Shown here one piece after another: positions 11,595 through 64,000 of a stretch of DNA of 64,000 nt. This DNA comes from Candidatus Omnitrophota bacterium (GTDB lineage Bacteria; Omnitrophota; Gorgyraeia; Gygaellales; Profunditerraquicolaceae): contig JBFZAT010000026.1 in NCBI GenBank assembly GCA_041308845.1, positions 41,102 to 105,101 on the forward strand, given 5' to 3'. The notes beneath the pieces are model-generated. The model saw only the letters and a program-made list of their open reading frames with translations, had not been told where the DNA came from and searched no databases. Numbering within the stretch: position 1 is the first letter of the stretch; each line of letters opens with the position of its first letter. The translations under genes were made by a program, and so were the position numbers.

Positions 11595-12884
11595 ATGAGC
11601 AAAACCAAAGCTTTTAAAGCGGTTGTCTATAATCCGGAAATAATCGGCGATCTTAAGCATGTTGTTTGCCCTCCGTACGATGTTATTTCACCTCAATCTC
11701 AGATTTTGTTTGCTGAGCGATCAGTGCATAATTTTATCCATATCCTTTTAGCTAAAGATTCCCCGCTGGATGATAAATACCGCCGTTCAGGAACGCTATT
11801 CCGTAATTGGCTTAAGGACGGGGTTTTGATGCAAGATGAAAAACCAGCTATTTATTTTTATAGTCAGCAGTATGTAATCCGGGGTGAAAAAAAGACCCGT
11901 TTGGGTTTTATCTCTTTGTTAAGATTGGGGGATGAAAAAAGTTCAGCTGTATTCGGCCATGAAAATACGCATAATGCTGCTAAACTAGACCGGTTTAAGT
12001 TGGTTAAGCAGGTTAAAGCTAACTTGAGCCCGATTTTTATAATTTTTATGGATAAGAAAAGGATTATCCAGCGTATCTTTCAGAAACAAATTCCGGCGCT
12101 GCAGCCTTTTATTGAGGTGACGGATGATGAAAAGACTACGCATAAGCTTTGGCGTTTGAATGATCCAGAGTTGCTGAAACTAGTGGAAACTAGTATGAAT
12201 AGCGAAAATATGTTTATTGCCGATGGACATCATCGTTATGAAGTTTCTTGCGCTTACCGGGATATGCAGCGGGAAAAACTGGGTGCCCAATTTACTGGGG
12301 ATGAAGATTTTAATTACTGCTTAGCTTATTTTACCAATACGGATTATCGGGGATTATCCATTCTCCCTATTCACCGTCTGCTTAAGTTGGATGCAGAGTT
12401 AGATCTGGATGATTTCCTAACTAAAGCTAAAGAGTATTTTGATATTGACCAGTTCAAGGATCGCACGCGTTTTTTCTTTTTACTGGAAAAAGCCGGTTGC
12501 GCCGAGCATCTGTTAGGATTTTATGCGGATAAGAAATATTTTCTTTTACGCTTAAAGAATGTCAAAATGCTGGATAAGTTGATTGCGGATAAGCCTAAAG
12601 AGTACCGGATACTAGATGTAGCGATACTGAATTACTTGGTTCTTAAAAATATTCTTCAATTGGACTTACACAATTTAACTACGATTGAGTACAATCCGGA
12701 TCCTTACGCATTAATGGCAGAAGTGGATAATGATCCTTTAAAAGTTGCCTTTTTCTTAAATCCGGTTAAAATTCAGCAGATAATTAATATTGCTATTAGC
12801 GGTAATAAAATGCCTCCCAAATCTACTTATTTTTATCCTAAGGTGCTTTCTGGACTGGTGGTGAATAAATTCGAAAAGGAATGA
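11595..12884 (+). CDS. DUF1015 (COG4198) family protein of unknown function
   Basis: About 430 aa with the conserved N-terminal PPYDVIS motif typical of DUF1015. Confidence 0.55.
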   Translation: MSKTKAFKAVVYNPEIIGDLKHVVCPPYDVISPQSQILFAERSVHNFIHILLAKDSPLDDKYRRSGTLFRNWLKDGVLMQDEKPAIYFYSQQYVIRGEKKTRLGFISLLRLGDEKSSAVFGHENTHNAAKLDRFKLVKQVKANLSPIFIIFMDKKRIIQRIFQKQIPALQPFIEVTDDEKTTHKLWRLNDPELLKLVETSMNSENMFIADGHHRYEVSCAYRDMQREKLGAQFTGDEDFNYCLAYFTNTDYRGLSILPIHRLLKLDAELDLDDFLTKAKEYFDIDQFKDRTRFFFLLEKAGCAEHLLGFYADKKYFLLRLKNVKMLDKLIADKPKEYRILDVAILNYLVLKNILQLDLHNLTTIEYNPDPYALMAEVDNDPLKVAFFLNPVKIQQIINIAISGNKMPPKSTYFYPKVLSGLVVNKFEKE

Positions 12885-34260: not shown

Positions 34261-34334
34261 GGGCCCATAGCTCAGTCGGTTAGAGCAGTTGACTCATAAT
34301 CAATTGGTCCGGGGTTCGAGTCCCTGTGGGCCCA
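34261..34334 (+). tRNA. tRNA with anticodon CAT; features favour tRNA-Ile2 (lysidine) over elongator Met
   Basis: Manual cloverleaf: acceptor GGGCCCA/TGGGCCC, D-arm GCTC-AGTCGGTTA-GAGC, anticodon stem GTTGA/TCAAT with loop CTCATAA, T-arm CGGGG-TTCGAGT-CCCTG. C4-G69 and C5-G68 in the acceptor and a TTGGTC variable loop resemble tRNA-Ile(LAU). Confidence 0.85.
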
Positions 34335-34478: not shown

Positions 34479-34570
34479 TTTTAGAATGCCATCCGGGGCA
34501 TGGTGTGGCCTGCGAACCTGGCAGGAATATACAGTTTAGTTTTGACAAGGTGGTTAAATAAAACGGTTAT

Positions 34571-34644
34571 GGGCGATTGGCTCAGTTGGTTAGAGCGCTA
34601 CATTCACATTGTAGATGTCAGAGGTTCGAGTCCTCTATCGCCCA
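34571..34644 (+). tRNA. tRNA-Val (anticodon CAC)
   Basis: Manual cloverleaf: acceptor GGGCGAT/ATCGCCC, D-arm GCTC-AGTTGGTTA-GAGC, anticodon stem CTACA/TGTAG with loop TTCACAT, T-arm AGAGG-TTCGAGT-CCTCT. Confidence 0.85.
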
Positions 34645-34675
34645 TTAAAATATCTCAACAGAGAGATTTCCTGAC

Positions 34676-35386: not shown

Positions 35387-35799
35387 ACCATTTAGAGGTT
35401 TATATTGACGGGGCGTCTCAGGGTAATCCCGGGCATAGTGGAGTAGGGATCGTAATTTTTCATCATGGTTTACGGATTAAGAATATCTCAAATTATATCG
35501 GCAAGGCAACCAATAATGTCGCCGAATATACTGCTTTGATTTATGCTTTGGAAGAAGCGTTATTGCTGAAAGCTAAAAGCCTGAAAATTAATACCGATAG
35601 CCAACTCTTAGCCCGGCAGTTAAATAAAATTTATAAAGTTAAACATGCCGGGATAATAGGTTTATTTAACCGGGCGACTCATCTCTTAACCGGTTTTGAA
35701 AAAGTTGTAGTTAACCATATCCCCCGGGAAGAAAATAAGCTGGCGGATAAATTGGCCACCCAGGCGATTAATTCTTTTCTGGGAAAATCTTTGATTTAA
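35383..35799 (+). CDS. rnhA: ribonuclease HI
   Basis: 138 aa: DGASQGNPG (catalytic Asp), E in EYTALIYALEEA, TDSQ, and a C-terminal D in ENKLADKLA. Confidence 0.8.
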   Translation: MNHLEVYIDGASQGNPGHSGVGIVIFHHGLRIKNISNYIGKATNNVAEYTALIYALEEALLLKAKSLKINTDSQLLARQLNKIYKVKHAGIIGLFNRATHLLTGFEKVVVNHIPREENKLADKLATQAINSFLGKSLI

Positions 35800-36203
35800 G
35801 CAGGCAGAGTGTGGCTGCCCGCCACTATATCAGTGGCGGGAGGAAAGTCCGGGCTCCAGAGGGTAGCGTAACGGATAATGTCCGTCCTGTATAGTTAATA
35901 TGCAGAGGATCCCCGTTTAAAATCTAGCGGGGCCGCCATTTTCGGCGAAAGAGCCACAGAGACGAGTAACCGCTTTTAAAAGCGGCGAAGTGAAACGCGG
36001 CAATCTCTACGCGGAGCAAAGTAGAATAGGAGATGAGCGCTGATCCGGCGCGCTTTCCGCCTCGGCGGAAAACAATCTCGGGTAAACTGCTAAAGTTCTC
36101 GCGGTAACGCGGAAATTGAGAGGAATAGCCACTGCGATGTAGCATGCGCCTGCCTTGCCGGCAGGCGGGCATCAAGACAAAACCCGGCTTATTCTGCCTG
36201 CTT
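35800..36203 (+). ncRNA. rnpB: RNase P RNA (bacterial type A-like)
   Basis: Universal motifs GGGAGGAAAGTCCGGGCTCCA near the 5' end and ACAAAACCCGGCTTA near the 3' end; P1 pairing GCAGGCAGA (35800-) with TCTGCCTGC (-36201). ORF-track entry 35924..36175(-) lies inside it and is spurious. Confidence 0.85.
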
Positions 36204-36280
36204 TAATCTTAGACTGAACGATATATAATTTATCGGTAGATTACCGTATTAAACATCAATTAAACATTAAAGGAGGATTT

Positions 36281-47357: not shown

Positions 47358-50300
47358 TTAGCTTAAATAAATATCGATTTTTTTAATTTCCCGCGATCTG
47401 ACTGCCTGGGCATAAGGTGGAGGAATTACCGCGCCCTCTAACTGCACGGATTGTTTTTTATCCTGGAGTACGATCCTGTTGATTATGGCGGCTTGCCGGC
47501 CGAAAGTGTTTTTTCTTTTAGGGTTATGGTAGGTTACCCGGACCTGACTTAAAAAATTAAAAGTATATTCCCCGTTTTTGTTAAATAACCAGCCGGGTAA
47601 ATTTGGCTTAAAAATTAAGTTTAGCTGTCCGGTTTTGTTTAGGGTAAAAGGAGTAATCCCTGCGTGCATGATTAACCAAATCTGCAAGAATTCAGCAGTT
47701 GAACCGGAAAGCCTGGCTACAAACCCATTGCCATGCAATTTTTTGTCTGCGAATGCGCTGCTGACTAAAAAAGAAGAATTTTCTAGAATACTGCGTCCGT
47801 AGACCTGCGGGTTCTGAAAAGGGATTAAAACTTGTTTAAATTCGGTATAAAATTCTTCGACCAATCCAGCCTTGAGCAGTTCTAGAATATACTTGTACTC
47901 CATATGCAACCAAATAGATTCGTTCTCCAGCCAGCCTGGGCTAAAGATTCTGCAACGGCCGATTTCTTCCGGCATGCTGGTTAGAGAGGCGGTTACTTTA
48001 TACATTTTAAGTTTTTTATCAAAAAGCGCACTGTTTTTGGTTGCTTGGTGCAGGGCTAATTTCTGTTGCGGTTCATCTGCCAACCTTAATGCATGCATCT
48101 GGCCCTCCAGGAATAAAGGGAGGGGTTTTTGAATGAATTTTTTAGGCTTTAAAAAGTGGTCCCGGATTAAATCATACTCTACAACTTCATTAATAAAATA
48201 TGAATGGTAAACTCCTTTTTTACTGTCGAGTGCCTTATTTAGGCCTGCTTCTACTTTGTTCAGCCCCGCTTCAAGAAAAAGGTTTAGTTTATCTACAGAA
48301 AGATTTAATAGGCGTCCGGAAAACCCCAAACGAGTTTTGTGCCGGAAATTTTCTTTCAAGGTATTGCTTTTATCCCAATAAGAAAAAGCTGTATCTGTAA
48401 ATATCGGCAAGAGTTCTTCAATAAACACCGCTATTTCTTCGGGCATTTCTACTTCTCCGGATGCGGAGAGCTTTAAAGCTTGTTTAGTCATTTTAAGCAA
48501 GCGCTTTAATTCAAATGTTTCGCAGGCCGATGATCCAAAAAGAGCTGGCAATCCGTTAAGCGAATCAAACCAGTTTGGTTTATTAGCCTCCATTTCAATG
48601 CCCACTCCGCAGGCATCCAGTGAAGCCAGTTTATTCACTGCTAAGCATAAAAGTTTTACCATTAGGCTGGTATAATAGATCTGGCCTTCTCCGTTCAGCA
48701 TTCTGAGAGCATGCGGGTTAACCTTGCGCCGGCGCAGGAGCTCTTTTTTATGGCTGTCAAGCGTAAGGGAATGTAGTTGACGAGGTTGTCCGTTATACAA
48801 TATGTATTTTTCACTACGCGGTCGAACGGTCTCGGGATTATCAAAAAACGAAAAAACTTTCCGGGTCCAAAAGAGTTCTTTTGCTTTTTCCGGGAATAAC
48901 TCTAGGTAGCGATCAATTAAATCTAGATTATACGTCCAGTGGTCAGTCCAGAACCCTTCTCCGTGTTCAGCCTCGTGAATTTTTAAGGCATGAGAAAGGA
49001 TAATATCCAGGAACTCATCATAGGAGGAGTTGATTTTAATTTTGTTTTCTTCGATAAAAAAGATCAGCTCGCCCGGGCTAAAAGGCTTTTTCAGAAAAAC
49101 GCAAAGTTTATCCTTATCGGTTTCTTGGCTGACGGTTTCCAAGAGTTCATGCTTATCCAGATTTTCCTCAACCAGAAAACTCTCCGGTTTGACCACTAAG
49201 GGATTGAAGCCATCCGCTTGGATTAAATTCATAAAGAAAACAATGTTTTCATCTTGAATATCCGGATTAAACCAGGGGTCATTACGGCGGTTTTGGTTGG
49301 TGTCCCGGTAATTGCCGTTGCCTTGGGAAAGATAAGTAGGCTGTAACTGAAATTTATTATAATCTCTTTCCAGGTCTCCGTGTTTACGCGAATAAAGATA
49401 AAAAACTACCCCGGATTTAAAAACTTCAGGATATCCTCCGCGCATAATGTTGTCCAGGTAAGTCTGGCCGGAGTATAAGTTGAATTCAGCGCTGCTGCTT
49501 TTAGTTAAAATATTATTTTTTAAACTTTCAATGAGCGCCAGATTTTGCAGCGCTTTTTCTTCGATATACCCGGGGGCAATAATTTTTTTTACCGATTGAT
49601 TTAAGGTCTCTGGATTACGTGCCTGTCCGCTTACTGCGTAAAATAGCTCCGCCTGGGCAGGTTTTAATTCTAAATTTAATAAGAGCAAAGCACTGGGAGT
49701 TTTGCTTTGCTTGAGTTGCTGTCTGGGATAGGAAAATTTATTAGTAGAAAGAAAAGTGGCTGGATAAGAAAAATCGGTCACCGGACCAAAGACTGCTTGT
49801 GGATCAACAATTGGTTTTATTATTAGATTTTTCCCTCTTTGCTTGCTGAATCCCAGGTAGAAGTTTCCTGGTTCAATATGCACTACTTCCGGACGGTCAG
49901 CCGGATCAACCTGGAGCCTGTAAAAGGGCACGGAGTTTTCTAGGTTGTCAACTGTCATCCAGGCTTCAATGGTGCGCCCGAGTTTTTTAAGGAAGAAGTT
50001 ATTTGTCCCGAAGGGGACGGTTTGCACTAGCCCGTCGATTAGCTGTAGGGATTTGATTTTCCTGCCGGTATTTTCGATACTTACTGTCCGGCTTAAGCCG
50101 GCGTAGTTATCATTAGGGATATTAAAATATCTTACTTGGATTTTTATCCCTAGAGTATGATTTTCTTCTTCCAAGATTAATTCTTGCGAAGCGATGCGCA
50201 GGCGGTTGCTGATTTGGTATTTAAGATTATTATAGCCATTATGGAAAGGTTCATAATAAATCGGTTCGGATTTCTTGTCCTGGAGTTTAATGAATGTGCG

Positions 50301-50555
50301 GAAGCCATGGCTTGTAGATAATTGCCAGGCCTTATTGGCCGGAAAGAATTCTAGGATCGCATGGTCTTTGTCTTTAGTTCCGAAGCTGCAAATACATTGA
50401 CCGCGGTTGACATAGAAGACCCACATCGGGATCCCGTATTTACCGGCTATTCCCGGGAAGAAATTAGCAAAGGGCTTGGCGTAATTATAATTTTCAATAA
50501 CAAATTCACCTTGCGGGTTGAGATAATATTTGGGTTTTAATTGTCGGTTTGGCAT
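47358..50555 (-). CDS. GH94-family glycoside phosphorylase-like protein (size and architecture resemble 1,2-beta-oligoglucan / cellodextrin phosphorylases)
   Basis: 1065 aa. The N-terminal beta-sandwich resembles the cellobiose-phosphorylase N-domain (EFVIENYNYAKPFANFFPG versus the EYVITTPHTPYPWINYLG pattern). An (alpha/alpha)6 region carries a G.G.RD.NQ phosphate-site-like motif (QGNGNYRDTNQNR). It is the only minus-strand gene in the window. Confidence 0.55.
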   Translation of the reverse strand: MPNRQLKPKYYLNPQGEFVIENYNYAKPFANFFPGIAGKYGIPMWVFYVNRGQCICSFGTKDKDHAILEFFPANKAWQLSTSHGFRTFIKLQDKKSEPIYYEPFHNGYNNLKYQISNRLRIASQELILEEENHTLGIKIQVRYFNIPNDNYAGLSRTVSIENTGRKIKSLQLIDGLVQTVPFGTNNFFLKKLGRTIEAWMTVDNLENSVPFYRLQVDPADRPEVVHIEPGNFYLGFSKQRGKNLIIKPIVDPQAVFGPVTDFSYPATFLSTNKFSYPRQQLKQSKTPSALLLLNLELKPAQAELFYAVSGQARNPETLNQSVKKIIAPGYIEEKALQNLALIESLKNNILTKSSSAEFNLYSGQTYLDNIMRGGYPEVFKSGVVFYLYSRKHGDLERDYNKFQLQPTYLSQGNGNYRDTNQNRRNDPWFNPDIQDENIVFFMNLIQADGFNPLVVKPESFLVEENLDKHELLETVSQETDKDKLCVFLKKPFSPGELIFFIEENKIKINSSYDEFLDIILSHALKIHEAEHGEGFWTDHWTYNLDLIDRYLELFPEKAKELFWTRKVFSFFDNPETVRPRSEKYILYNGQPRQLHSLTLDSHKKELLRRRKVNPHALRMLNGEGQIYYTSLMVKLLCLAVNKLASLDACGVGIEMEANKPNWFDSLNGLPALFGSSACETFELKRLLKMTKQALKLSASGEVEMPEEIAVFIEELLPIFTDTAFSYWDKSNTLKENFRHKTRLGFSGRLLNLSVDKLNLFLEAGLNKVEAGLNKALDSKKGVYHSYFINEVVEYDLIRDHFLKPKKFIQKPLPLFLEGQMHALRLADEPQQKLALHQATKNSALFDKKLKMYKVTASLTSMPEEIGRCRIFSPGWLENESIWLHMEYKYILELLKAGLVEEFYTEFKQVLIPFQNPQVYGRSILENSSFLVSSAFADKKLHGNGFVARLSGSTAEFLQIWLIMHAGITPFTLNKTGQLNLIFKPNLPGWLFNKNGEYTFNFLSQVRVTYHNPKRKNTFGRQAAIINRIVLQDKKQSVQLEGAVIPPPYAQAVRSREIKKIDIYLS

Positions 50556-56934: not shown

Positions 56935-57365
56935 AGATGATTATGCGCCTGTTGCTAACTTTAGTACTAAGCGGTTTAATTGGCTTAGAAAGGCAGGTCC
57001 ACCGCAGGGATGCTGGTTTGCGTACGCATATACTAGTGGCGCTGGGTAGTTGTCTTATCATGTTGACATCTTTGTATGTTTTTGATATATATAAAGATCA
57101 GGTATCTCTGGATCCGGTACGTATTGCTGCCGGTGTAGTTACCGGAATTGGTTTTTTAGGAGCCGGCACAATCATTCGCGAATCTGATGGAGTCAGAGGT
57201 TTAACTACAGCGGCCAGCCTTTGGGTGGCAGCCGGAATTGGCTTAGCGGTAGGGACGGGTTTTTGTAAAATTGCTATCTATACTACGGTTTTAGTTTTAA
57301 TTGTACTGCATTTTTTACGCTATTTAGAAGTACCACTTTCCAAGGAGGGTAAACATGGCCTTTAA
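56919..57365 (+). CDS. MgtC/SapB-family membrane protein
   Basis: 148 aa with four TM helices and LIGLERQVHRRDAGLRTHILVALGS matching the MgtC N-domain. Confidence 0.7.
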   Translation: MPTDLEMIMRLLLTLVLSGLIGLERQVHRRDAGLRTHILVALGSCLIMLTSLYVFDIYKDQVSLDPVRIAAGVVTGIGFLGAGTIIRESDGVRGLTTAASLWVAAGIGLAVGTGFCKIAIYTTVLVLIVLHFLRYLEVPLSKEGKHGL

Positions 57366-57858
57366 AAAGAATCTGGAAGAAAAAACTCTGGATGTTGATG
57401 CGGCAATGCAGGGGACGTTAACTTTTAAGGACCCGGTTAATCTGCGTATTAACGGTAAATTTGAAGGTAATCTGGATACGCGGGGCAATTTAACCATTGG
57501 TACTACAGCCGTTATTAATGCCGATATACTGGGAGATAATATTATTATCGGCGGGCGGGTTAAGGGTAAAATTACGGCTAAAGAAAGATTGACCTTGCTG
57601 CCCCAGGCAATTGTAGAAGGGAATATTTACCCGGCTAAACTTAACATTACTGAAGGCGCAGTTTTTGAGGGTCATTGTACGATGCTGCATGATTTCCTTA
57701 ATTCCGAACAGTTATCCAAGTATCTGGAAGTAGAGTTGAGTTCGATTATGGAATGGGCTAGTTCCGGCAAAGTACCAGCGACTAAAGAAAATAACGATTG
57801 GAAATTTGAGCGTAAAGCGATTGATTCCTGGGTAGCTTCAGGGAAAATCGCCAAATAA
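57355..57858 (+). CDS. bactofilin with a C-terminal excisionase/MerR-type HTH (HTH_17-like) extension
   Basis: Beta-helical bactofilin core (GNLDTRGNLTIGTTAVINADILGDNIIIGG...EGAVFEG), then KYLEVELSSIMEWASSGKVPATKENNDWKFERKAIDSWV. Confidence 0.65.
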   Translation: MAFKKNLEEKTLDVDAAMQGTLTFKDPVNLRINGKFEGNLDTRGNLTIGTTAVINADILGDNIIIGGRVKGKITAKERLTLLPQAIVEGNIYPAKLNITEGAVFEGHCTMLHDFLNSEQLSKYLEVELSSIMEWASSGKVPATKENNDWKFERKAIDSWVASGKIAK

Positions 57859-57862
57859 AAAT

Positions 57863-58174
57863 ATGACCGAAGAAAAAATGCTCACCGTCAGGGATGTTGC
57901 GGTTATGCTCGGAGTTACGGAGAAAGATGTCTTAGACCTTACCGAGCAGGGTAGGATTCCGGGGTATAAGGTGGGAGGAGTATACCTAAGGTTTAAGAAA
58001 GATCAAGTAGAGCAGTATAAAAAACAGCAGAGCCTGTTAGATCCTAAACCGGTTAAACCCGGGGCTGACGGTTTGGGCAATAAAGTTTTCGATTTTTTTT
58101 ATTTTAACGATTTTTATATTTTCGCTTTAATTTTAATTTGCCTTTTAGGGTATCTGGTTTACCGGGGTTTATAG
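57863..58174 (+). CDS. small HTH_17-like protein with a C-terminal transmembrane anchor
   Basis: LTVRDVAVMLGVTEKDVLDLTEQGRIPGYKVGGVYLRFKKDQV HTH, then the hydrophobic helix FYIFALILICLLGYLVY. It lies 4 nt after the bactofilin gene. Confidence 0.5.
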   Translation: MTEEKMLTVRDVAVMLGVTEKDVLDLTEQGRIPGYKVGGVYLRFKKDQVEQYKKQQSLLDPKPVKPGADGLGNKVFDFFYFNDFYIFALILICLLGYLVYRGL

Positions 58175-58178
58175 AGCG

Positions 58179-58850
58179 ATGGCCGCAGGCAAGGGATTTT
58201 GCGATTTGGGATTTGCTAAGATTGATACCGACCGCCAGAAACGCAAAGGATTTGCAGAGGTTATCTATTGCCCGGGCAAAGACCGCCAGCATTTAAAGGA
58301 TATTGCTAAAAAAATTATTACAGCTAGGCAGGACCTGTTATTAACTAGGCTGGATAAAACTACCTTTTCCTTTTTAAAAAAAGCCATCCCGGTTCTCAAG
58401 TATAATTCTTTGGCTAAAATCGGCTATTATTCTGTTAAGGCTAAATCTACCAGAGGCGGTTTAGTGCTGGTGGTTTCTGCCGGTACTGCAGATATTCCGG
58501 TAGCCGAAGAGGCGGTGCAGACTTTATCGTTGATGGGTAACCGAGTAGAGAAGTTATATGATGTCGGTGTCGCCGGAGTGCACCGGCTGATGAATAATCT
58601 GGATAAACTTAGGTCTGCGCAGGTGATTGTTGTCGTAGCTGGCATGGAAGGGGCTTTAGCTAGCTTAATCAGCGGGTTGGTTAAAGCGCCGATTGTGGCA
58701 GTGCCCACCAGTTGTGGATACGGATCAAGTTTTTCCGGATTGGCTGCGCTTTTAACGATGCTAAATGGTTGTTCGCCTGGGGTGGGCGTAGTTAATATTG
58801 ATAACGGTTTCGGAGCAGGCTATTTGGCTAGTTTAATCAACCAAAAATAA
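58179..58850 (+). CDS. larB: nickel-pincer cofactor biosynthesis protein LarB (PurE-like P2CMN synthase)
   Basis: AEVIYCPGK, VVVAGMEGALASL..G....PIVAVPTSCGYG and VVNIDNGFGAG motifs of LarB / PurE class. Confidence 0.75.
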   Translation: MAAGKGFCDLGFAKIDTDRQKRKGFAEVIYCPGKDRQHLKDIAKKIITARQDLLLTRLDKTTFSFLKKAIPVLKYNSLAKIGYYSVKAKSTRGGLVLVVSAGTADIPVAEEAVQTLSLMGNRVEKLYDVGVAGVHRLMNNLDKLRSAQVIVVVAGMEGALASLISGLVKAPIVAVPTSCGYGSSFSGLAALLTMLNGCSPGVGVVNIDNGFGAGYLASLINQK

Positions 58851-58852
58851 TC

Positions 58853-60184
58853 ATGGGGCTTTCAGGTTTAGATATCTATAAATTATTACCTAAGACTAAT
58901 TGCCGTGAATGCGGATTAGCTACTTGTTTAGCTTTTGCTATGCAACTGGCCAAGAAAACATTACCTATTGAAAAATGTCCTTTTATTTCTGCTGAGGCAA
59001 AATCTGCCTTGGAGGCCCAGGCTTTAGCACCGATTAAGTTGATTACGTTAGGTAATACCGATACGAAATTCCAGGTGGGTAACGAAACAGTGATGTTTAG
59101 GCATGAAGAAAAATTTCGTAATCCCACAGGCGTAGGTTTTATAATCGAGGATACGCTTAGCGATAGCCAGATTAAAGAGCAGCTGGGAAAAATCAATCAG
59201 TTAAAATTCGAACGCGTCGGCCAGGAGCTCAGCGTTAATCTGGTTAGTCTAAGGCAGAATAAAGATGCTGTTCGGTTTCTGCAGGCGGCGAAGATACTTT
59301 TAGATAATACTTTGCTGCCGATAATGTTGATGAGCAGTGATTTATTAGCTTTACAGCAGGCGGCCGCCCTCTGCCGGGGAGTTAAACCATTACTTTACTG
59401 TGCTGACCAGGCAAACTTTGTTCAACTGGCTGCGCTGGCTCAAGAATTTCAGCTTCCGCTGGTTGTAGCCGCTCAGGATATAGATCAGCTCAGCCGGCTA
59501 ACTCAAGAGATCAACCGTTTAGGCCTCAGCGAGTTGATACTAGATACCGGCATCAAGCCTCTGGCAGATAAGCTCTGGGATTTAACCCAAATCCGCCGGC
59601 AGGCCTTAAAAAGATCCAATCGCGCGCTGGGTTATCCTGTACTGGCCATTGCTGAACAGGCCGATCCTTATCAAGAAGCTATAGAGGCTAGCGCTTATAT
59701 TGCTAAGTATGCGGGTATTGTTTTAATTAAAGGTTTTTCTACTTGGGAAGTTCTTTCTATATTAACCTTAAGACAGAATATCTATACCGATCCGCAGAAA
59801 CCTCTGCAAATTGACCCTCAACTTTACGCTATCGGCAAGGTAGGCCCGGATTCGCCGGTTTTGGTCACTACTAACTTTTCTCTGAGTTATTATACTGTTT
59901 TAGGGGAAGTAGAAGCCAGTAAAATACCGGTTTACATCTTAAGCGTTGATACTCAAGGGATGTCTGTGCTGACTGCCTGGGCCGCTGAGAAATTCAACCC
60001 CGAAGCAATTACTAAATCACTGGATACTTTTAAAGTCAGGGAAGTGGTTAAGCATAAGAATTTGATTATTCCCGGTTATGTGGCGATGATCAGCGGTGAA
60101 TTGGAAGAGCAGTCAGGATTCAGAATTATTGTGGGCCCTAAAGAAGCTGCCGGAATTCCCGCTTTTTTAAAAAATCTTAATTAA
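58853..60184 (+). CDS. acsC: corrinoid iron-sulfur protein large subunit (acetyl-CoA decarbonylase/synthase gamma)
   Basis: N-terminal [4Fe-4S] motif NCRECGLATCLAFAM...CPF almost identical in pattern to Moorella AcsC; 443 aa. Confidence 0.85.
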   Translation: MGLSGLDIYKLLPKTNCRECGLATCLAFAMQLAKKTLPIEKCPFISAEAKSALEAQALAPIKLITLGNTDTKFQVGNETVMFRHEEKFRNPTGVGFIIEDTLSDSQIKEQLGKINQLKFERVGQELSVNLVSLRQNKDAVRFLQAAKILLDNTLLPIMLMSSDLLALQQAAALCRGVKPLLYCADQANFVQLAALAQEFQLPLVVAAQDIDQLSRLTQEINRLGLSELILDTGIKPLADKLWDLTQIRRQALKRSNRALGYPVLAIAEQADPYQEAIEASAYIAKYAGIVLIKGFSTWEVLSILTLRQNIYTDPQKPLQIDPQLYAIGKVGPDSPVLVTTNFSLSYYTVLGEVEASKIPVYILSVDTQGMSVLTAWAAEKFNPEAITKSLDTFKVREVVKHKNLIIPGYVAMISGELEEQSGFRIIVGPKEAAGIPAFLKNLN

Positions 60185-60200
60185 GATAAAAAATTAATAT

Positions 60201-62126
60201 ATGCGGAAATTTAAAGTTAGATTTCTACCCGATAATCTGGTGATTATGGTAGAAGAGAATAAAACCATTCTTTCTGCGGCGATATCCGCAGGCATTTATC
60301 TGAACTCTAATTGTTCTGGTGAAGGTACTTGTGGAAAATGTAAAGTGGTGATCAAGCAGGGGACAGTTAAAACTCGACCTAACGGAATGATCAGCGAGCA
60401 AGAAAAAAAGGATAATGTATATTTAGCTTGTTTGACTACTGTTCAAGGGGAGCTGGAAGTTTTAATCCCGGAGAGCTCCCGGTTTGATTTTGATCAACTT
60501 ACACCCGAGCAGTTACAAGAACGCTTAGTAGGTTTATACGCTCAGGCTGAGGAGCTCCCGCTAGAAAATCCGAAATTTGAAGATGAAATTTTTCAGCATT
60601 CGCCTTTTTCCAGGAAAGTATATTTAGAACTGCCGAAACCTACACTTAATGATAGCATTAGCGATTTAGAAAGGTTATACCGCAGCTTGCGTAATCTGGA
60701 GAATTTTCCGGTCATCTCAACCGGGATATTTAATATTCGCCAGTTAGGTGAGTTATTACGTAATTATGATTGGAAGGTTACTGTAACTTTGACCCGGCGT
60801 CACGATGCAGTGGAGATTGTATCCATTGAACCCGGTGATACTAGTGATAAGAATTTCGGGTTTTGTTTTGATATCGGTACGACTACAATTTCCGGTCAAT
60901 TAGTAAACCTGAATACTAACCAGGTTATTGGGACTAAGGCTGCTTCTAATCCGCAGGCGGCTTTTGGCAGCGATGTCATCACCCGGATTGTTTATGCCGC
61001 TCAAGTTGCAGGGTTAGAGAAATTGCACCTGATGGTCTCAGATACGATGAATCGGATTATTCAGGATTTAACCGCTGAGTATCAAATTGCTCTCAATGAC
61101 GTTAATTGTATTGTTTGTTCGGGTAACACCACGATGATTCATTTACTTTTACGCATGGACCCTCAACATATTCGTCGGCATCCCTACATTCCTACGGCAA
61201 ATTACATCCCGGTTCTACCAGCTAAGGAAGCGGGAATTAAAATTAATCCGCGCGGGTTTATGCGTTGCGTTTCCGGGGTAGCTAGTTATGTTGGCGGAGA
61301 TGTTACTGCCGGCGTTTTGTCCAGCCGGATATATAAGCAGACAGATCCTTGTATTTTGATCGATATCGGCACAAACGGGGAAATTATATTGGGGAATCGG
61401 GATTTCTTAGTAGCTGCTGCGGCTTCTGCCGGGCCGGCTTTTGAAGGCAGCGGAGTAACCAGCGGTATGCGCGCCGCCAGCGGAGCGATCCAAAAAGTAA
61501 GAATTGATAAAAAAGATTTAAACGTTCAATATAGCACGATCCAGGATAAGTTACCCCGTGGAATCTGCGGTTCGGGTTATATTGATTTATTGAGTGAAAT
61601 GTTAAGTTCCGGGGTAATTGACAAGGCCGGGAAAATTAAGGTTCAGGGCCGGCGTGTCCGTCCTAGCGCTAGCGGTTTAGAATTTGTAGTTTGTTTTAAG
61701 GAAGATATCCAAGCCCAGGCAGATATTGTAATTAACGAAGCAGATATCGAAAATCTCAAGCGCTCTAAAGCCGCTATTTATTCTGCTACGGCAATTTTGA
61801 CTAGGCATTTAGAGCTAAGTTTCTGCAATATCTCTAAAATATTTATTGCTGGCGGATTCGGGACGTATCTGGATGTCCAAAAGGCAATCAGTATAGGGTT
61901 ATTACCGGATTTACCGCTTAATAAATTTATCTTTATCGGAAATAGTTCTTTAGCCGGAGCCCGGGAAATTCTTTTATCCCAACAAGCAATGGTAATGGCC
62001 GATACACTGGCGGCTAAAATTACTTATTTTGAATTATCTGTAGACCCGGCTTACATGGATGAATACGGGCAGGCATTATTCTTTCCGCATACAGATTTAA
62101 CTAAGTTTCCCCGGGTGAGCTTTTAA
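60201..62126 (+). CDS. acsV: reductive activator of CoFeSP (RACo): [2Fe-2S] ferredoxin domain plus ASKHA ATPase domain
   Basis: N-terminal plant-type ferredoxin CSGEGTCGKCKV; 641 aa; a C-terminal ASKHA fold. It sits between acsC and cooC as in Moorella orf7. Confidence 0.75.
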   Translation: MRKFKVRFLPDNLVIMVEENKTILSAAISAGIYLNSNCSGEGTCGKCKVVIKQGTVKTRPNGMISEQEKKDNVYLACLTTVQGELEVLIPESSRFDFDQLTPEQLQERLVGLYAQAEELPLENPKFEDEIFQHSPFSRKVYLELPKPTLNDSISDLERLYRSLRNLENFPVISTGIFNIRQLGELLRNYDWKVTVTLTRRHDAVEIVSIEPGDTSDKNFGFCFDIGTTTISGQLVNLNTNQVIGTKAASNPQAAFGSDVITRIVYAAQVAGLEKLHLMVSDTMNRIIQDLTAEYQIALNDVNCIVCSGNTTMIHLLLRMDPQHIRRHPYIPTANYIPVLPAKEAGIKINPRGFMRCVSGVASYVGGDVTAGVLSSRIYKQTDPCILIDIGTNGEIILGNRDFLVAAAASAGPAFEGSGVTSGMRAASGAIQKVRIDKKDLNVQYSTIQDKLPRGICGSGYIDLLSEMLSSGVIDKAGKIKVQGRRVRPSASGLEFVVCFKEDIQAQADIVINEADIENLKRSKAAIYSATAILTRHLELSFCNISKIFIAGGFGTYLDVQKAISIGLLPDLPLNKFIFIGNSSLAGAREILLSQQAMVMADTLAAKITYFELSVDPAYMDEYGQALFFPHTDLTKFPRVSF

Positions 62127-62878
62127 TGGGATACCTGATTGCTTTAGCCGGCAAAGGAGGCACGGGTAAGACTACGCTCGCTGCTTTACTTATCCGTATT
62201 TTAAAAGAAAAAAAAATGGGCTCAATCCTGGCCATTGACGCTGATCCCAATAGCAATCTGGGTGAAGTTCTAGGAGTTAAGGTAACCGATAATGTTGGCG
62301 CGATCCTGGATCAGATTACTTCTAGTCCGGAAAAGATACCGGCGGGTATGGCCAAAGAACGTTTTATCCAACATCAGGTGCAAGCGGCGATTTATGAAGC
62401 GGATGGTTTTGATTTATTAAATATGGGTAAACCCGAAGGTCCGGGTTGTTATTGTTACGTAAACAACATTTTACGCGGTCTGATCTCTAAATTGATCCAG
62501 GATTATGAATTTGTGATCATGGATAATGAAGCTGGATTAGAGCATTTGTCGCGGCGCACCAGCCGCTTGGCGGATATTTTAATTGTGGTTTCTGATCCTT
62601 CTTGTGTAGGTTTAAGTTCGGCCCAGCGGATCAGTGAACTTGCTGAGGCTTTAAAATTCGAAATTAAGAAGAAGGTGCTGTTAGTTAACCGTTATAACCG
62701 TGTTCTGCTTGAAGATAAAATTCAAGAAACTGGCTTAGAACTTTTAGGTAGCCTGCCTTTTGAGGCTCAACTACAGGAATTAAGTTTTAACGGCGGATCA
62801 GTTTTTGATTTAAATTCAGATGCGCAAATTCTAAAGGCACTTAATTCGTTAGGAGGCCGAATATGGAACCACAACTAA
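62126..62878 (+). CDS. acsF: CooC-type nickel-insertion ATPase (MinD/ParA family)
   Basis: Deviant Walker A GKGGTGKTT and a CooC-like CxC region (GPGCYCYV). Confidence 0.8.
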   Translation: MGYLIALAGKGGTGKTTLAALLIRILKEKKMGSILAIDADPNSNLGEVLGVKVTDNVGAILDQITSSPEKIPAGMAKERFIQHQVQAAIYEADGFDLLNMGKPEGPGCYCYVNNILRGLISKLIQDYEFVIMDNEAGLEHLSRRTSRLADILIVVSDPSCVGLSSAQRISELAEALKFEIKKKVLLVNRYNRVLLEDKIQETGLELLGSLPFEAQLQELSFNGGSVFDLNSDAQILKALNSLGGRIWNHN

Positions 62879-63798
62879 TCCTTGAAAAATGGCCGGGAGT
62901 AATTTCTACAGTGTCAATCGGAGCTAGCCCCGGCGCGGGCGTATCCGGCAGTCCGGCTTTATCAATCGGTGGCCAGACGGGTATGCCTTTATTATTTAAA
63001 GAAGGTTTAATGCCTAACCCGCCAAAGATTGCCTTCGAAATATGGGATATTGCTCCGTTTGATCTTGATCAAGCATTGCTTACTGTTTACGGTTCTTGCT
63101 TGAAGGATCCTATAGCCTGGGCAGAGCATTGTGTTTATGAATATAAAGCCCAGTTGCTCTGTTTAAAGATGCAGGGAGCGCATCCTGATTTTGGTGATAA
63201 GACTCCCCAACAGTCTGCTGAGTTTGTTTCCAAGTTATTAACTAAGCTTAAGGTGCCTTTAATTATTGTCGGCAGCGGGGATAACGCTAAGGATAATTTA
63301 ATTATGCCGGCTTGCTCGGAGGCAGCTAAAGGCCAGCGTTGTTTGATCGGTAGCGCAGTCCAGGATAATTACAAAACTTTGGTTGCCAGCGCTCTAGCTG
63401 ATGGCCACAGTATTATTGCTGAAAGTCCGATTGATATTAATATTGCCAAGCAATTAAATATACTAATCTCTGATATGGGATTAAGTTTAGAGCGCATTGT
63501 CATGGATCCGACCATCGGAGCTTTAGGTTATGGTTTAGAATATGCCTATTCAATTATGGAAAGGGCTAGATTAGCGGCTTTGTCCGGGGATAAAACCTTA
63601 GCTTGTCCGTTTATTTGTTTTGTCGGCCAGGAGGCCTGGAGGACTAAAGAAGCCAAAGTATCCTCGGAGCAGGGAATTATCTGGGAAACATTGACTGCCA
63701 CTAGCTTAATTCAGGCCGGAGCTGACCTTTTGGTAATGCGCCATCCGCAAGCCGTTGAGCAAGTACGGAATTTTATAAAACTTTTGTTTAAGGAGTAA
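62863..63798 (+). CDS. acsD: corrinoid iron-sulfur protein small subunit (acetyl-CoA decarbonylase/synthase delta)
   Basis: 311 aa TIM-barrel protein of AcsD size; position between cooC and acsE. Confidence 0.75.
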   Translation: MEPQLILEKWPGVISTVSIGASPGAGVSGSPALSIGGQTGMPLLFKEGLMPNPPKIAFEIWDIAPFDLDQALLTVYGSCLKDPIAWAEHCVYEYKAQLLCLKMQGAHPDFGDKTPQQSAEFVSKLLTKLKVPLIIVGSGDNAKDNLIMPACSEAAKGQRCLIGSAVQDNYKTLVASALADGHSIIAESPIDINIAKQLNILISDMGLSLERIVMDPTIGALGYGLEYAYSIMERARLAALSGDKTLACPFICFVGQEAWRTKEAKVSSEQGIIWETLTATSLIQAGADLLVMRHPQAVEQVRNFIKLLFKE

Positions 63799-63800
63799 GG

Positions 63801-64000
63801 ATGTTTATTGTCGGTGAATTAATTAATGGGATGTATGCGAATATTGCTTTAGCGCTTAAAGAGCGGAATAAGAGTATTGTGCAAACCTGTGCTTTAGAGC
63901 AAATTGCCGCTGGGGCAGATGCTTTGGACCTTTGCTGTGGGCCGGCTTCTTTAAATCCGTTAGTGGATATGCCTTGGCTGGTGGAAACAGTGCAGGAGGT
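63801..64000 (+). CDS. acsE: methyltetrahydrofolate:corrinoid/iron-sulfur protein methyltransferase, N-terminal 66 aa (3' end beyond the window)
   Basis: MFIVGELINGMYANI...ALDLCCGPA matches the AcsE/MeTr N-terminus (ERINGMF...ALDLNVGPA). Confidence 0.7.
   Translation, partial: MFIVGELINGMYANIALALKERNKSIVQTCALEQIAAGADALDLCCGPASLNPLVDMPWLVETVQE

Follow-up and report, generated by a model that had tools for sequence, protein, structure and literature searches.

Near the end of a 64,000-nucleotide stretch of DNA from Candidatus Omnitrophota bacterium (assembly GCA_041308845.1, contig JBFZAT010000026.1, positions 41,102 to 105,101 of the forward strand; hereafter the window) lies larB, whose product catalyzes the first step in the synthesis of a cofactor, nickel-pincer nucleotide (NPN). 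It is followed, after a gap of just 2 nt (TAA tc ATG), by five genes predicted to encode the Wood-Ljungdahl pathway's methyl/corrinoid half. This junction raises the question of whether two nickel systems have been functionally coupled in this organism or have merely come to lie side by side. A sequence-only reading of the window had raised coupling as a possibility, with larB heading the module in the position otherwise occupied by the carbon monoxide dehydrogenase/acetyl-CoA synthase (CODH/ACS) genes. Our comparison with related loci points to the second answer: we estimate a probability of about 0.75 that the adjacency of larB and the acs genes is inherited gene order in a streamlined genome and not a functional coupling. 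The genes concerned are:

58179..58850, + strand: larB, pyridinium-3,5-biscarboxylic acid mononucleotide (P2CMN) synthase, 223 aa, assigned here to the backbone of the surrounding gene array (NF033503; PDB 7mj0/8soq)
58853..60184, + strand: acsC, corrinoid iron-sulfur protein (CFeSP) large subunit, 443 aa (NF003195, 544 bits; PF04060 and PF03599)
60201..62126, + strand: acsV/RACo, ATP-dependent reductive activator of corrinoid protein, 641 aa (PF00111, PF17650, PF17651 and PF14574)
62126..62878, + strand: cooC, CooC/AcsF-type nickel-insertion P-loop ATPase, 250 aa, in the middle of the cluster (CooC1 3kje, 92 bits)
62863..63798, + strand: acsD, CFeSP small subunit, 311 aa (NF003376, 372 bits against a cutoff of 280; PF03599)
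63801..64000, + strand: acsE, methyltetrahydrofolate:CFeSP methyltransferase, of which the first 66 codons precede the window end (MFIVGELINGMYANI...)

Within this module AcsC and AcsD would form the CFeSP, which AcsE would load with the methyl group of methyltetrahydrofolate, while RACo would carry out the ATP-driven reductive reactivation of the oxidised Co(II) corrinoid and the CooC/AcsF-type ATPase would insert nickel.

Gene order across the lineage

We compared the window with 80 loci of LarB, taken from species-representative genomes, and 80 of AcsC, taken from metagenomes, together with contexts obtained from homologue look-ups, in each case with flanks of up to 10 kb per side; about 55 of the loci are lar-adjacent members of the window's lineage, and 32 have the canonical acsB-acsC arrangement. 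The closest relatives of the window's LarB and AcsC are encoded in metagenome-assembled genomes (MAGs) labelled Omnitrophota. One of these relatives (L005, QZM4_2.bins.442) is placed by a survey of the phylum in Velamenicoccia; Gygaellales; Profunditerraquicolaceae (Seymour et al. 2023, PMC10066038). The window organism is an Omnitrophota of the class Velamenicoccia with a small, streamlined genome.

In 47 loci from many samples larB lies upstream of acsC-RACo-cooC-acsD-acsE, with tsaD-mgtC-bactofilin/HTH-HTH (HTH, helix-turn-helix) as the upstream context and tilS(-ftsH) usually a few kb downstream. What stands between larB and acsC varies among relatives. Seven loci, which belong to the lineage's most divergent members, have a full-length larC there (PF01969, 314 bits in L131), which overlaps larB by 4 nt and either lies 2-4 nt from acsC or overlaps it. 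Another 29 loci have an intact, tightly packed gene for an FmdE-family protein of 133-163 aa (PF02663, 59-73 bits) with the motif FHGHLGPYLVLG...CLIDGLQLSTG, also given as FHGHLGPYLVLG...KPKSCLIDGLQLSTG. The following are examples of this PF02663 gene, which is absent from the window (strand not specified):

L003:7913-8314, FmdE-family gene
L109:9594-9998, FmdE-family gene
L005:8618-9037, FmdE-family gene
L122:9493-9900, FmdE-family gene

That this protein handles metal, or displaced larC from the slot, is a matter of speculation. Relics of larC were sought in what had looked like spacers of 400-560 nt separating larB from acsC in relatives; there were none, and the supposed spacers hold the intact FmdE-family gene. 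Outside the lineage, a Clostridiaceae MAG has an FmdE-like gene (L055:7473-7751) immediately upstream of larE-larB-larC.

In a quick neighbour-joining tree of AcsC, built from this single protein and with an outgroup rooting of no visible effect, the larC-bearing loci are the deepest of the lar-adjacent loci, the fmdE-bearing loci form a paraphyletic grade, and the window belongs to a monophyletic subclade of 12 tips that is nested in this grade and has no intervening gene; a few independent losses of the intervening gene are seen elsewhere (L119, L116 and L112). Given this branching order, we read the 2-nt larB-acsC junction of the window as a derived state produced by deletion. The succession of states would have run from larB-larC-acsC through larB-fmdE-like-acsC to larB-acsC, with the loss of the intervening gene leaving the junction now seen.

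The other side of the argument concerns the array into which the module is set. L176 and L177 have the array pdxA-ksgA-gatCAB-ctpA-deacetylase-tsaD-mgtC-bactofilin/HTH-HTH-larB-larC ... tilS-ftsH, with no acs genes in the slot. Similarly, in the more distant Omnitrophota L051, L007, L025, L009 and L013 larB occurs, often followed by larC-like open reading frames (ORFs), without acs genes, and tsaD-mgtC-bactofilin precedes it in L051, L007, L009 and L013, the contig of L025 being short. Because the backbone with its lar genes thus exists without acs genes (L176/L177, L051, L007, L009 and L013), larB, and ancestrally also larC, would belong to this backbone rather than to the acs module, and the latter would occupy a variable slot of a long co-directional housekeeping array directly after the NPN cofactor genes. 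That larB heads the module, as the sequence-only reading supposed, is not supported; larB is anchored in a backbone that can do without the acs genes. The two can also part in other ways: in L114 the HTH gene is followed directly by acsC and larB is gone, and in L108 the acs module follows trp genes, with no lar genes. Beyond the lineage the association was not encountered, with no acs genes within 10 kb of LarB in about 75 LarB loci and no lar genes within 10 kb of acsB-acsC in the 32 canonical loci. The supposed special unit of nickel cofactor and carbon fixation is not supported. A literature search found no report of a lar-acs linkage; the gene order, which we did not find described, is probably neutral, and its proteins are members of known families.

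As a separate observation, the housekeeping order pdxA-ksgA-gatCAB-ctpA-deacetylase-tsaD-mgtC ... tilS-ftsH is kept in relatives at only about 50% protein identity.

Tight junctions along the array

The 2-nt gap had been taken as the glue between larB and acsC. Across the window, 37 of 54 same-strand junctions are no wider than 5 nt, the median being -4 nt, and the unbroken tight run that includes larB begins at gatC (50711), 7.5 kb upstream of it. The gap is therefore ordinary for this genome, and in relatives it is filled by larC (7 loci) or the FmdE-family gene (29 loci). Fifty-six of the 57 annotated ORFs of the window are on the + strand, and the GC skew is positive throughout. Co-transcription of larB and acsC by read-through is likely, since the 13-kb array from gatC onward leaves no room for internal signals; it is also little informative, because the same applies to gatCAB, tsaD and mgtC upstream.

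Regulatory signals were sought in the same region. Scans of the window for promoter and terminator consensus sequences gave matches at the level of shuffled or background sequence, and an Rfam scan found no nickel or cobalamin riboswitch, nor any other element, near the cluster. The HTH_17 gene upstream ends 4 nt before larB, leaving no intergenic room for a NikR operator of the kind that the sequence-only reading had proposed to look for upstream of 58179.

Identity of LarB

Gene families were scored with Pfam and NCBIfam models and by alignment to PDB structures. The window LarB scores 282.5 bits on the NCBIfam equivalog model NF033503 (cutoff 175), and its residues 3-222 align with the Lactiplantibacillus plantarum LarB structures 7mj0/8soq at 231 bits. 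It was also scored as a possible divergent PurE, an identity that the sequence-only reading had named as a potential undoing of its assignment; the purE model TIGR01162 gives 31.4 bits against a cutoff of 149.6, and the LarB assignment stands. Cys198 and Glu157 align with Cys221 and Glu180 of the L. plantarum enzyme (AGMEGALAS motif), which we take to be its catalytic residues, the roles reportedly described by Rankin and colleagues in 2021. Both are invariant in 38 of 38 full-length LarBs of the lineage. The ratio of nonsynonymous to synonymous substitution rates (dN/dS) of larB is 0.03-0.11, which matches the values of tsaD, acsC, RACo and acsD when the same genomes are paired. Because of saturation of dS, few pairs yield numbers, most being affected, and the values are rough. 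To judge from these features larB is an intact LarB gene under purifying selection, with a predicted LarB function.

A known counterpart is the lar operon of Lactiplantibacillus (larA-larB-larC1-larC2-larD-larE, seen in L054), whose LarB shares 49% identity with that of the window across 220 residues, the catalytic Cys and Glu being conserved. Unlike that operon, the window lacks larA, larC and larE, LarA, LarC and LarE having no match anywhere in its 64 kb, and larB accordingly adjoins neither larC nor larE as it would in a lar gene cluster. The 223-aa LarB of the window also differs from the Lactiplantibacillus enzyme in being without its N-terminal helix of about 25 residues. The same holds for all LarBs of the lineage and, as the larC-bearing relatives have LarBs of 224-229 aa, the short form is not a truncation particular to the window genome.

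A larB gene on its own is common: about 38 of 80 LarB loci across phyla have no larC or larE within 10 kb. In the phylum survey (PMC10066038), larB, larC and larE occur together without larA in at least two Omnitrophota genomes, and genomes with larBCE and no larA are a known class amounting to about 15% of genomes (PMC11796402). Users of the NPN cofactor other than LarA have recently been found (PMC13524815). LarB would feed a normal NPN pathway in the window genome.

The corrinoid module

For the gene assignments, E-values of 1e-84 to 1e-190 exclude chance. AcsC matches the CFeSP large subunit 2h9a over its full length (448 bits), has the CdhD TIM-barrel domain (PF03599), to whose family AcsD also belongs, carries its N-terminal [4Fe-4S] motif (PF04060) as Cys17/20/25/42, and, as the resemblance of residues 319-441 to the corrinoid domain of HgcA indicates, retains the C-terminal corrinoid-binding domain. 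RACo shows all four Pfam domains in order ([2Fe-2S] ferredoxin, linker, middle and ASKHA), with the four N-terminal Cys of the ferredoxin domain present; its residues 1-639 match the RACo structure 3zyy at 527 bits, and it scores 644.8 bits on NF040756, an AcsV model of the "exception" type, which is under the model's cutoff of 800. The best PDB match of the CooC-type ATPase is CooC1 3kje (residues 5-231, 92 bits); a P-loop of the deviant Walker A type, GKGGTGKT, is found at 9-16, and C108-Y-C110 aligns with the CxC of CooC1. The acsE gene, cut short in the window, has an identical copy on L001 that reaches 262 aa with a Pterin_bind domain (PF00809). Altogether, ORFs, families and structures agree with the identities and + strand positions that the sequence-only reading had given to larB, acsC, RACo, cooC, acsD and the start of acsE. 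In the closest species-representative relative, RACo is split into two overlapping tblastn segments (L029:9791-11428), suggestive of a frameshift or an assembly error.

The order acsC-RACo-cooC-acsD-acsE, which had been likened to that of Moorella, is the same in the 30-odd canonical clusters that we fetched. The Moorella order itself we take to be acsA-acsB-acsC-orf7[RACo]-acsF/cooC-acsD-acsE. The window module has the same five genes in the same order as the acs clusters of Moorella thermoacetica and Carboxydothermus hydrogenoformans, and its proteins match the C. hydrogenoformans CFeSP (2h9a) and RACo (3zyy) over their full length with the metal motifs kept, CooC1 (3kje) being matched, as the best PDB entry, over residues 5-231 with the CxC aligned. 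Given this homology and these motifs, the module proteins should work as they do in Moorella and Carboxydothermus. Unlike in those organisms, no acsA, acsB or cooS adjoins the module, which has larB upstream and tilS downstream, and it is set in a housekeeping array rather than in a dedicated one-carbon (C1) cluster with fhs, folD and metF.

Detachment from CODH/ACS

The separation of acsB and cooS from acsC is real and lineage-wide. Searches with tblastn found no match to AcsB or CooS in the window or in the flanks of about 55 loci of the lineage. The arrangement of a canonical acs operon, with acsB directly upstream of acsC, is seen in 32 of 32 canonical loci and not in the window; all AcsC relatives outside the lineage with enough upstream sequence have acsB directly upstream, commonly with cooC-cooS before it. 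The atypical arrangement of CODH/ACS genes anticipated in the sequence-only reading is thus borne out as a trait of the whole lineage (about 55 loci), with acsAB and cooS absent upstream and not immediately downstream. Beyond position 64000, where the sequence-only reading had advised looking for acsB, cooS and the other lar genes, a second assembly of the same organism, GCA_041308905.1, has a PP-loop gene about 400 bp after acsE; acsB, cooS and larE do not follow immediately. This PP-loop gene is tilS, with 181 bits on the TilS model (cutoff 94); as a candidate LarE it was rejected, the LarE model giving 31 bits against a cutoff of 150.

Within the phylum, the canonical clusters (the Gorgyraia genome GCA_001804165.1, L170; also L169, L171-L173 and L175) encode AcsC-AcsE proteins 47-57% identical to those of the window, with nearly identical lengths and the same internal order. 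These clusters read fhs-fchA-folD-(metF)-cooC-cooS-fdx-oxidoreductase-acsB-acsC-RACo-cooC-acsD-acsE, with no lar genes nearby, whereas in the window's lineage the acsC-acsE part is detached and placed after larB(-larC). The five-gene module would have become separated from acsB and cooS. The window's CooC-type ATPase is 38-45% identical to the mid-cluster paralogue of the canonical clusters, as against about 30% to the paralogue adjacent to cooS, and its gene has a dN/dS of about 0.09.

The phylum survey, which scores the presence and absence of genes, credits Velamenicoccia, and with them Profunditerraquicolaceae and its neighbours, with a partial or complete Wood-Ljungdahl pathway that comprises AcsB-E and, in some cases but not all, CooS (Seymour et al. 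2023, PMC10066038). Among Velamenicoccus archaeovorus and the Profunditerraquicolaceae, kin of the window at the level of class or family, some species lack AcsA/CooS and others have it, a patchiness in keeping with a module that has lost its physical tie to CODH; neither larB, nor the split of acsB from acsCDE, nor an adjacency to lar genes was found in the parts of the survey that were searched. The constrained nickel-insertion ATPase of the module, taken together with that survey, makes it likely that ACS/CODH is encoded elsewhere in the window genome.

Several loci bear on acsB and its surroundings in other ways. In L174:8665-13041 (GCA_964460615.1, contig CAYWPX010000004.1) an Omnitrophota-like acsB (731 aa) stands beside a gene for a CooC-type ATPase and next to a 409-aa Prismane-family ORF whose match takes in only part of the CODH/HCP model; no acsC, acsD or acsE lies within 10 kb of this acsB, and the G+C content of 0.40 and the dense packing are similar to those of the window. 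This is a detached "ACS half", arranged as the other half would be expected to be, a candidate counterpart to the corrinoid half of the window and a possible member of the lineage. AcsB genes appear to be interrupted by inserted sequence in L153:3564-8972 and in the genes for P0144 (1185 aa) and for P0286 (1260 aa). The latter two proteins contain two extra Pfam domains, PF14528 and PF14890, which we take to be intein/homing-endonuclease families, and a 1802-aa ORF of L153 resembles AcsB in three blocks. In L175:17473-21490, acsD and acsE are split by about 4 kb holding genes for Peptidase_S74 and the HicAB and PemK toxin-antitoxin systems, which looks like a mobile insertion within the operon.

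Coupling or coincidence

That the junction might be an artifact, with a lar locus joined to an acs locus by chimeric assembly or binning, would be a natural concern for a MAG whose second assembly is highly fragmented. The larB-acsC junction recurs on an independent assembly (L002, 100% identical) and in another 45 contigs that come from a range of samples and studies, by which this explanation is effectively refuted. A more substantial possibility is an economy of nickel, in which lar and acs genes are kept adjacent and co-transcribed so that the genes for NPN synthesis and those for ACS maturation would be expressed jointly in the presence of nickel or with the pathway on. It can appeal to an adjacency held in about 55 contigs over AcsC identities of 48-100%, to near-gapless junctions (larB/larC overlapping by 4 nt, larC/acsC 2-4 nt, and larB/acsC 2 nt in the window), and to the fact that LarC and CooC-type proteins both handle nickel (PMC13524815). 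We nevertheless consider it unlikely: the association has a single evolutionary origin, with no recurrence in the roughly 75 other LarB loci or the 32 canonical acs loci; the unrelated tsaD, mgtC, gatCAB, tilS and ftsH are equally conserved in position; larC has been lost from the site, larB lost in L114, the acs genes are absent in L176 and relocated in L108; and neither a nickel riboswitch or other Rfam element near the cluster nor intergenic space for an operator is to be found. Far less probable still is a role of its own for LarB in the window's subclade, independent of LarC and LarE, whereby P2CMN or a carboxylase/hydrolase chemistry would serve C1/corrinoid metabolism. Such a role would account for the retention of larB beside acsC after larC had left the site, and the subclade and the fmdE grade, with no larC or larE in their flanks, do keep the Cys and Glu of LarB and a dN/dS of 0.03-0.11; yet larB on its own is found in about 38 of 80 LarB loci, some Omnitrophota genomes encode larB, larC and larE according to the survey, and L114 keeps the acs module with no larB at all. 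Taken more broadly, the proposal that the lar and corrinoid genes of Velamenicoccia form a selected unit, either through nickel-responsive co-expression or through LarB, later joined or replaced in the slot by the FmdE-family protein, aiding C1/corrinoid/ACS metabolism, appears to us doubtful. If true, it would tie NPN cofactor biosynthesis to acetogenic C1 metabolism, a link of which we know no instance.

Inherited gene order remains the explanation that we prefer, with several points standing against it. The lar-acs adjacency persists down to about 48% AcsC identity with translationally coupled junctions, as selection for co-expression would produce, and both gene sets concern nickel, which LarC and CooC/AcsF insert, so that a shared nickel-dependent expression is plausible. 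The larC, larE and NPN-dependent enzyme expected of a working pathway have not been located, nor have acsB and cooS. Moreover, the direction of events, that is, whether the acs genes moved in or were lost in relatives, rests on the quick single-protein tree with its visibly ineffective rooting, and the dN/dS values are rough because of the saturation of dS.

Implications

With these reservations, the streamlined Omnitrophota provide a well-supported example of a corrinoid/methyl module that, throughout an entire lineage, is no longer physically joined to ACS/CODH. For the annotation of partial pathways in MAGs this means that acsCDE without acsB on a short contig is what one should expect in this lineage; taken alone, it points neither to a binning error nor to missing sequence. 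The locus also counsels caution in the guilt-by-association mining of lar neighbourhoods, the approach behind the recent discovery of new NPN-dependent enzymes: where genes run co-directionally in long arrays, neither adjacency nor a 2-nt gap says much about function.

Other features of the window

Directly upstream of larB, and outside the acs module, lie two further genes of the backbone:

57355..57858, + strand: bactofilin and HTH_17 fusion protein, 167 aa (PF04519, 88 bits; PF12728, 33 bits)
57863..58174, + strand: small HTH_17 (excisionase/MerR-like) protein of 103 aa whose C-terminal tail is hydrophobic (PF12728, 43.6 bits)

This pair is kept directly upstream of larB across Omnitrophota, the fusion gene holding its position in all related loci; the fusion of bactofilin with an HTH domain looks unusual. 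The first 58 kb of the window contain no lar, acs or coo gene and are given over to housekeeping functions, including miaAB, hflX, hrcA-dnaKJ, accD, an lptD-like gene and UDP-sugar enzymes, as well as dnaG-rpoD, ruvCA, aromatic amino-acid genes, lepA-lepB, gatCAB, ctpA and tsaD. The structured RNAs detected in the window, all far upstream of the cluster, are just three (strand not specified):

34261-34334: tRNA-Met(CAT) (Rfam)
34570-34645: tRNA-Val(CAC) (Rfam)
35798-36207: RNase P RNA class A (Rfam, 158 bits)

Two of the protein-coding genes stand out. A DUF1015 protein of 429 aa (11595-12884, 262 bits), encoded between dnaJ and accD, has no NCBIfam assignment, and the sole minus-strand gene among the 57 annotated ORFs (47358-50555) encodes a protein of 1065 aa with no Pfam match at E <= 1e-5.

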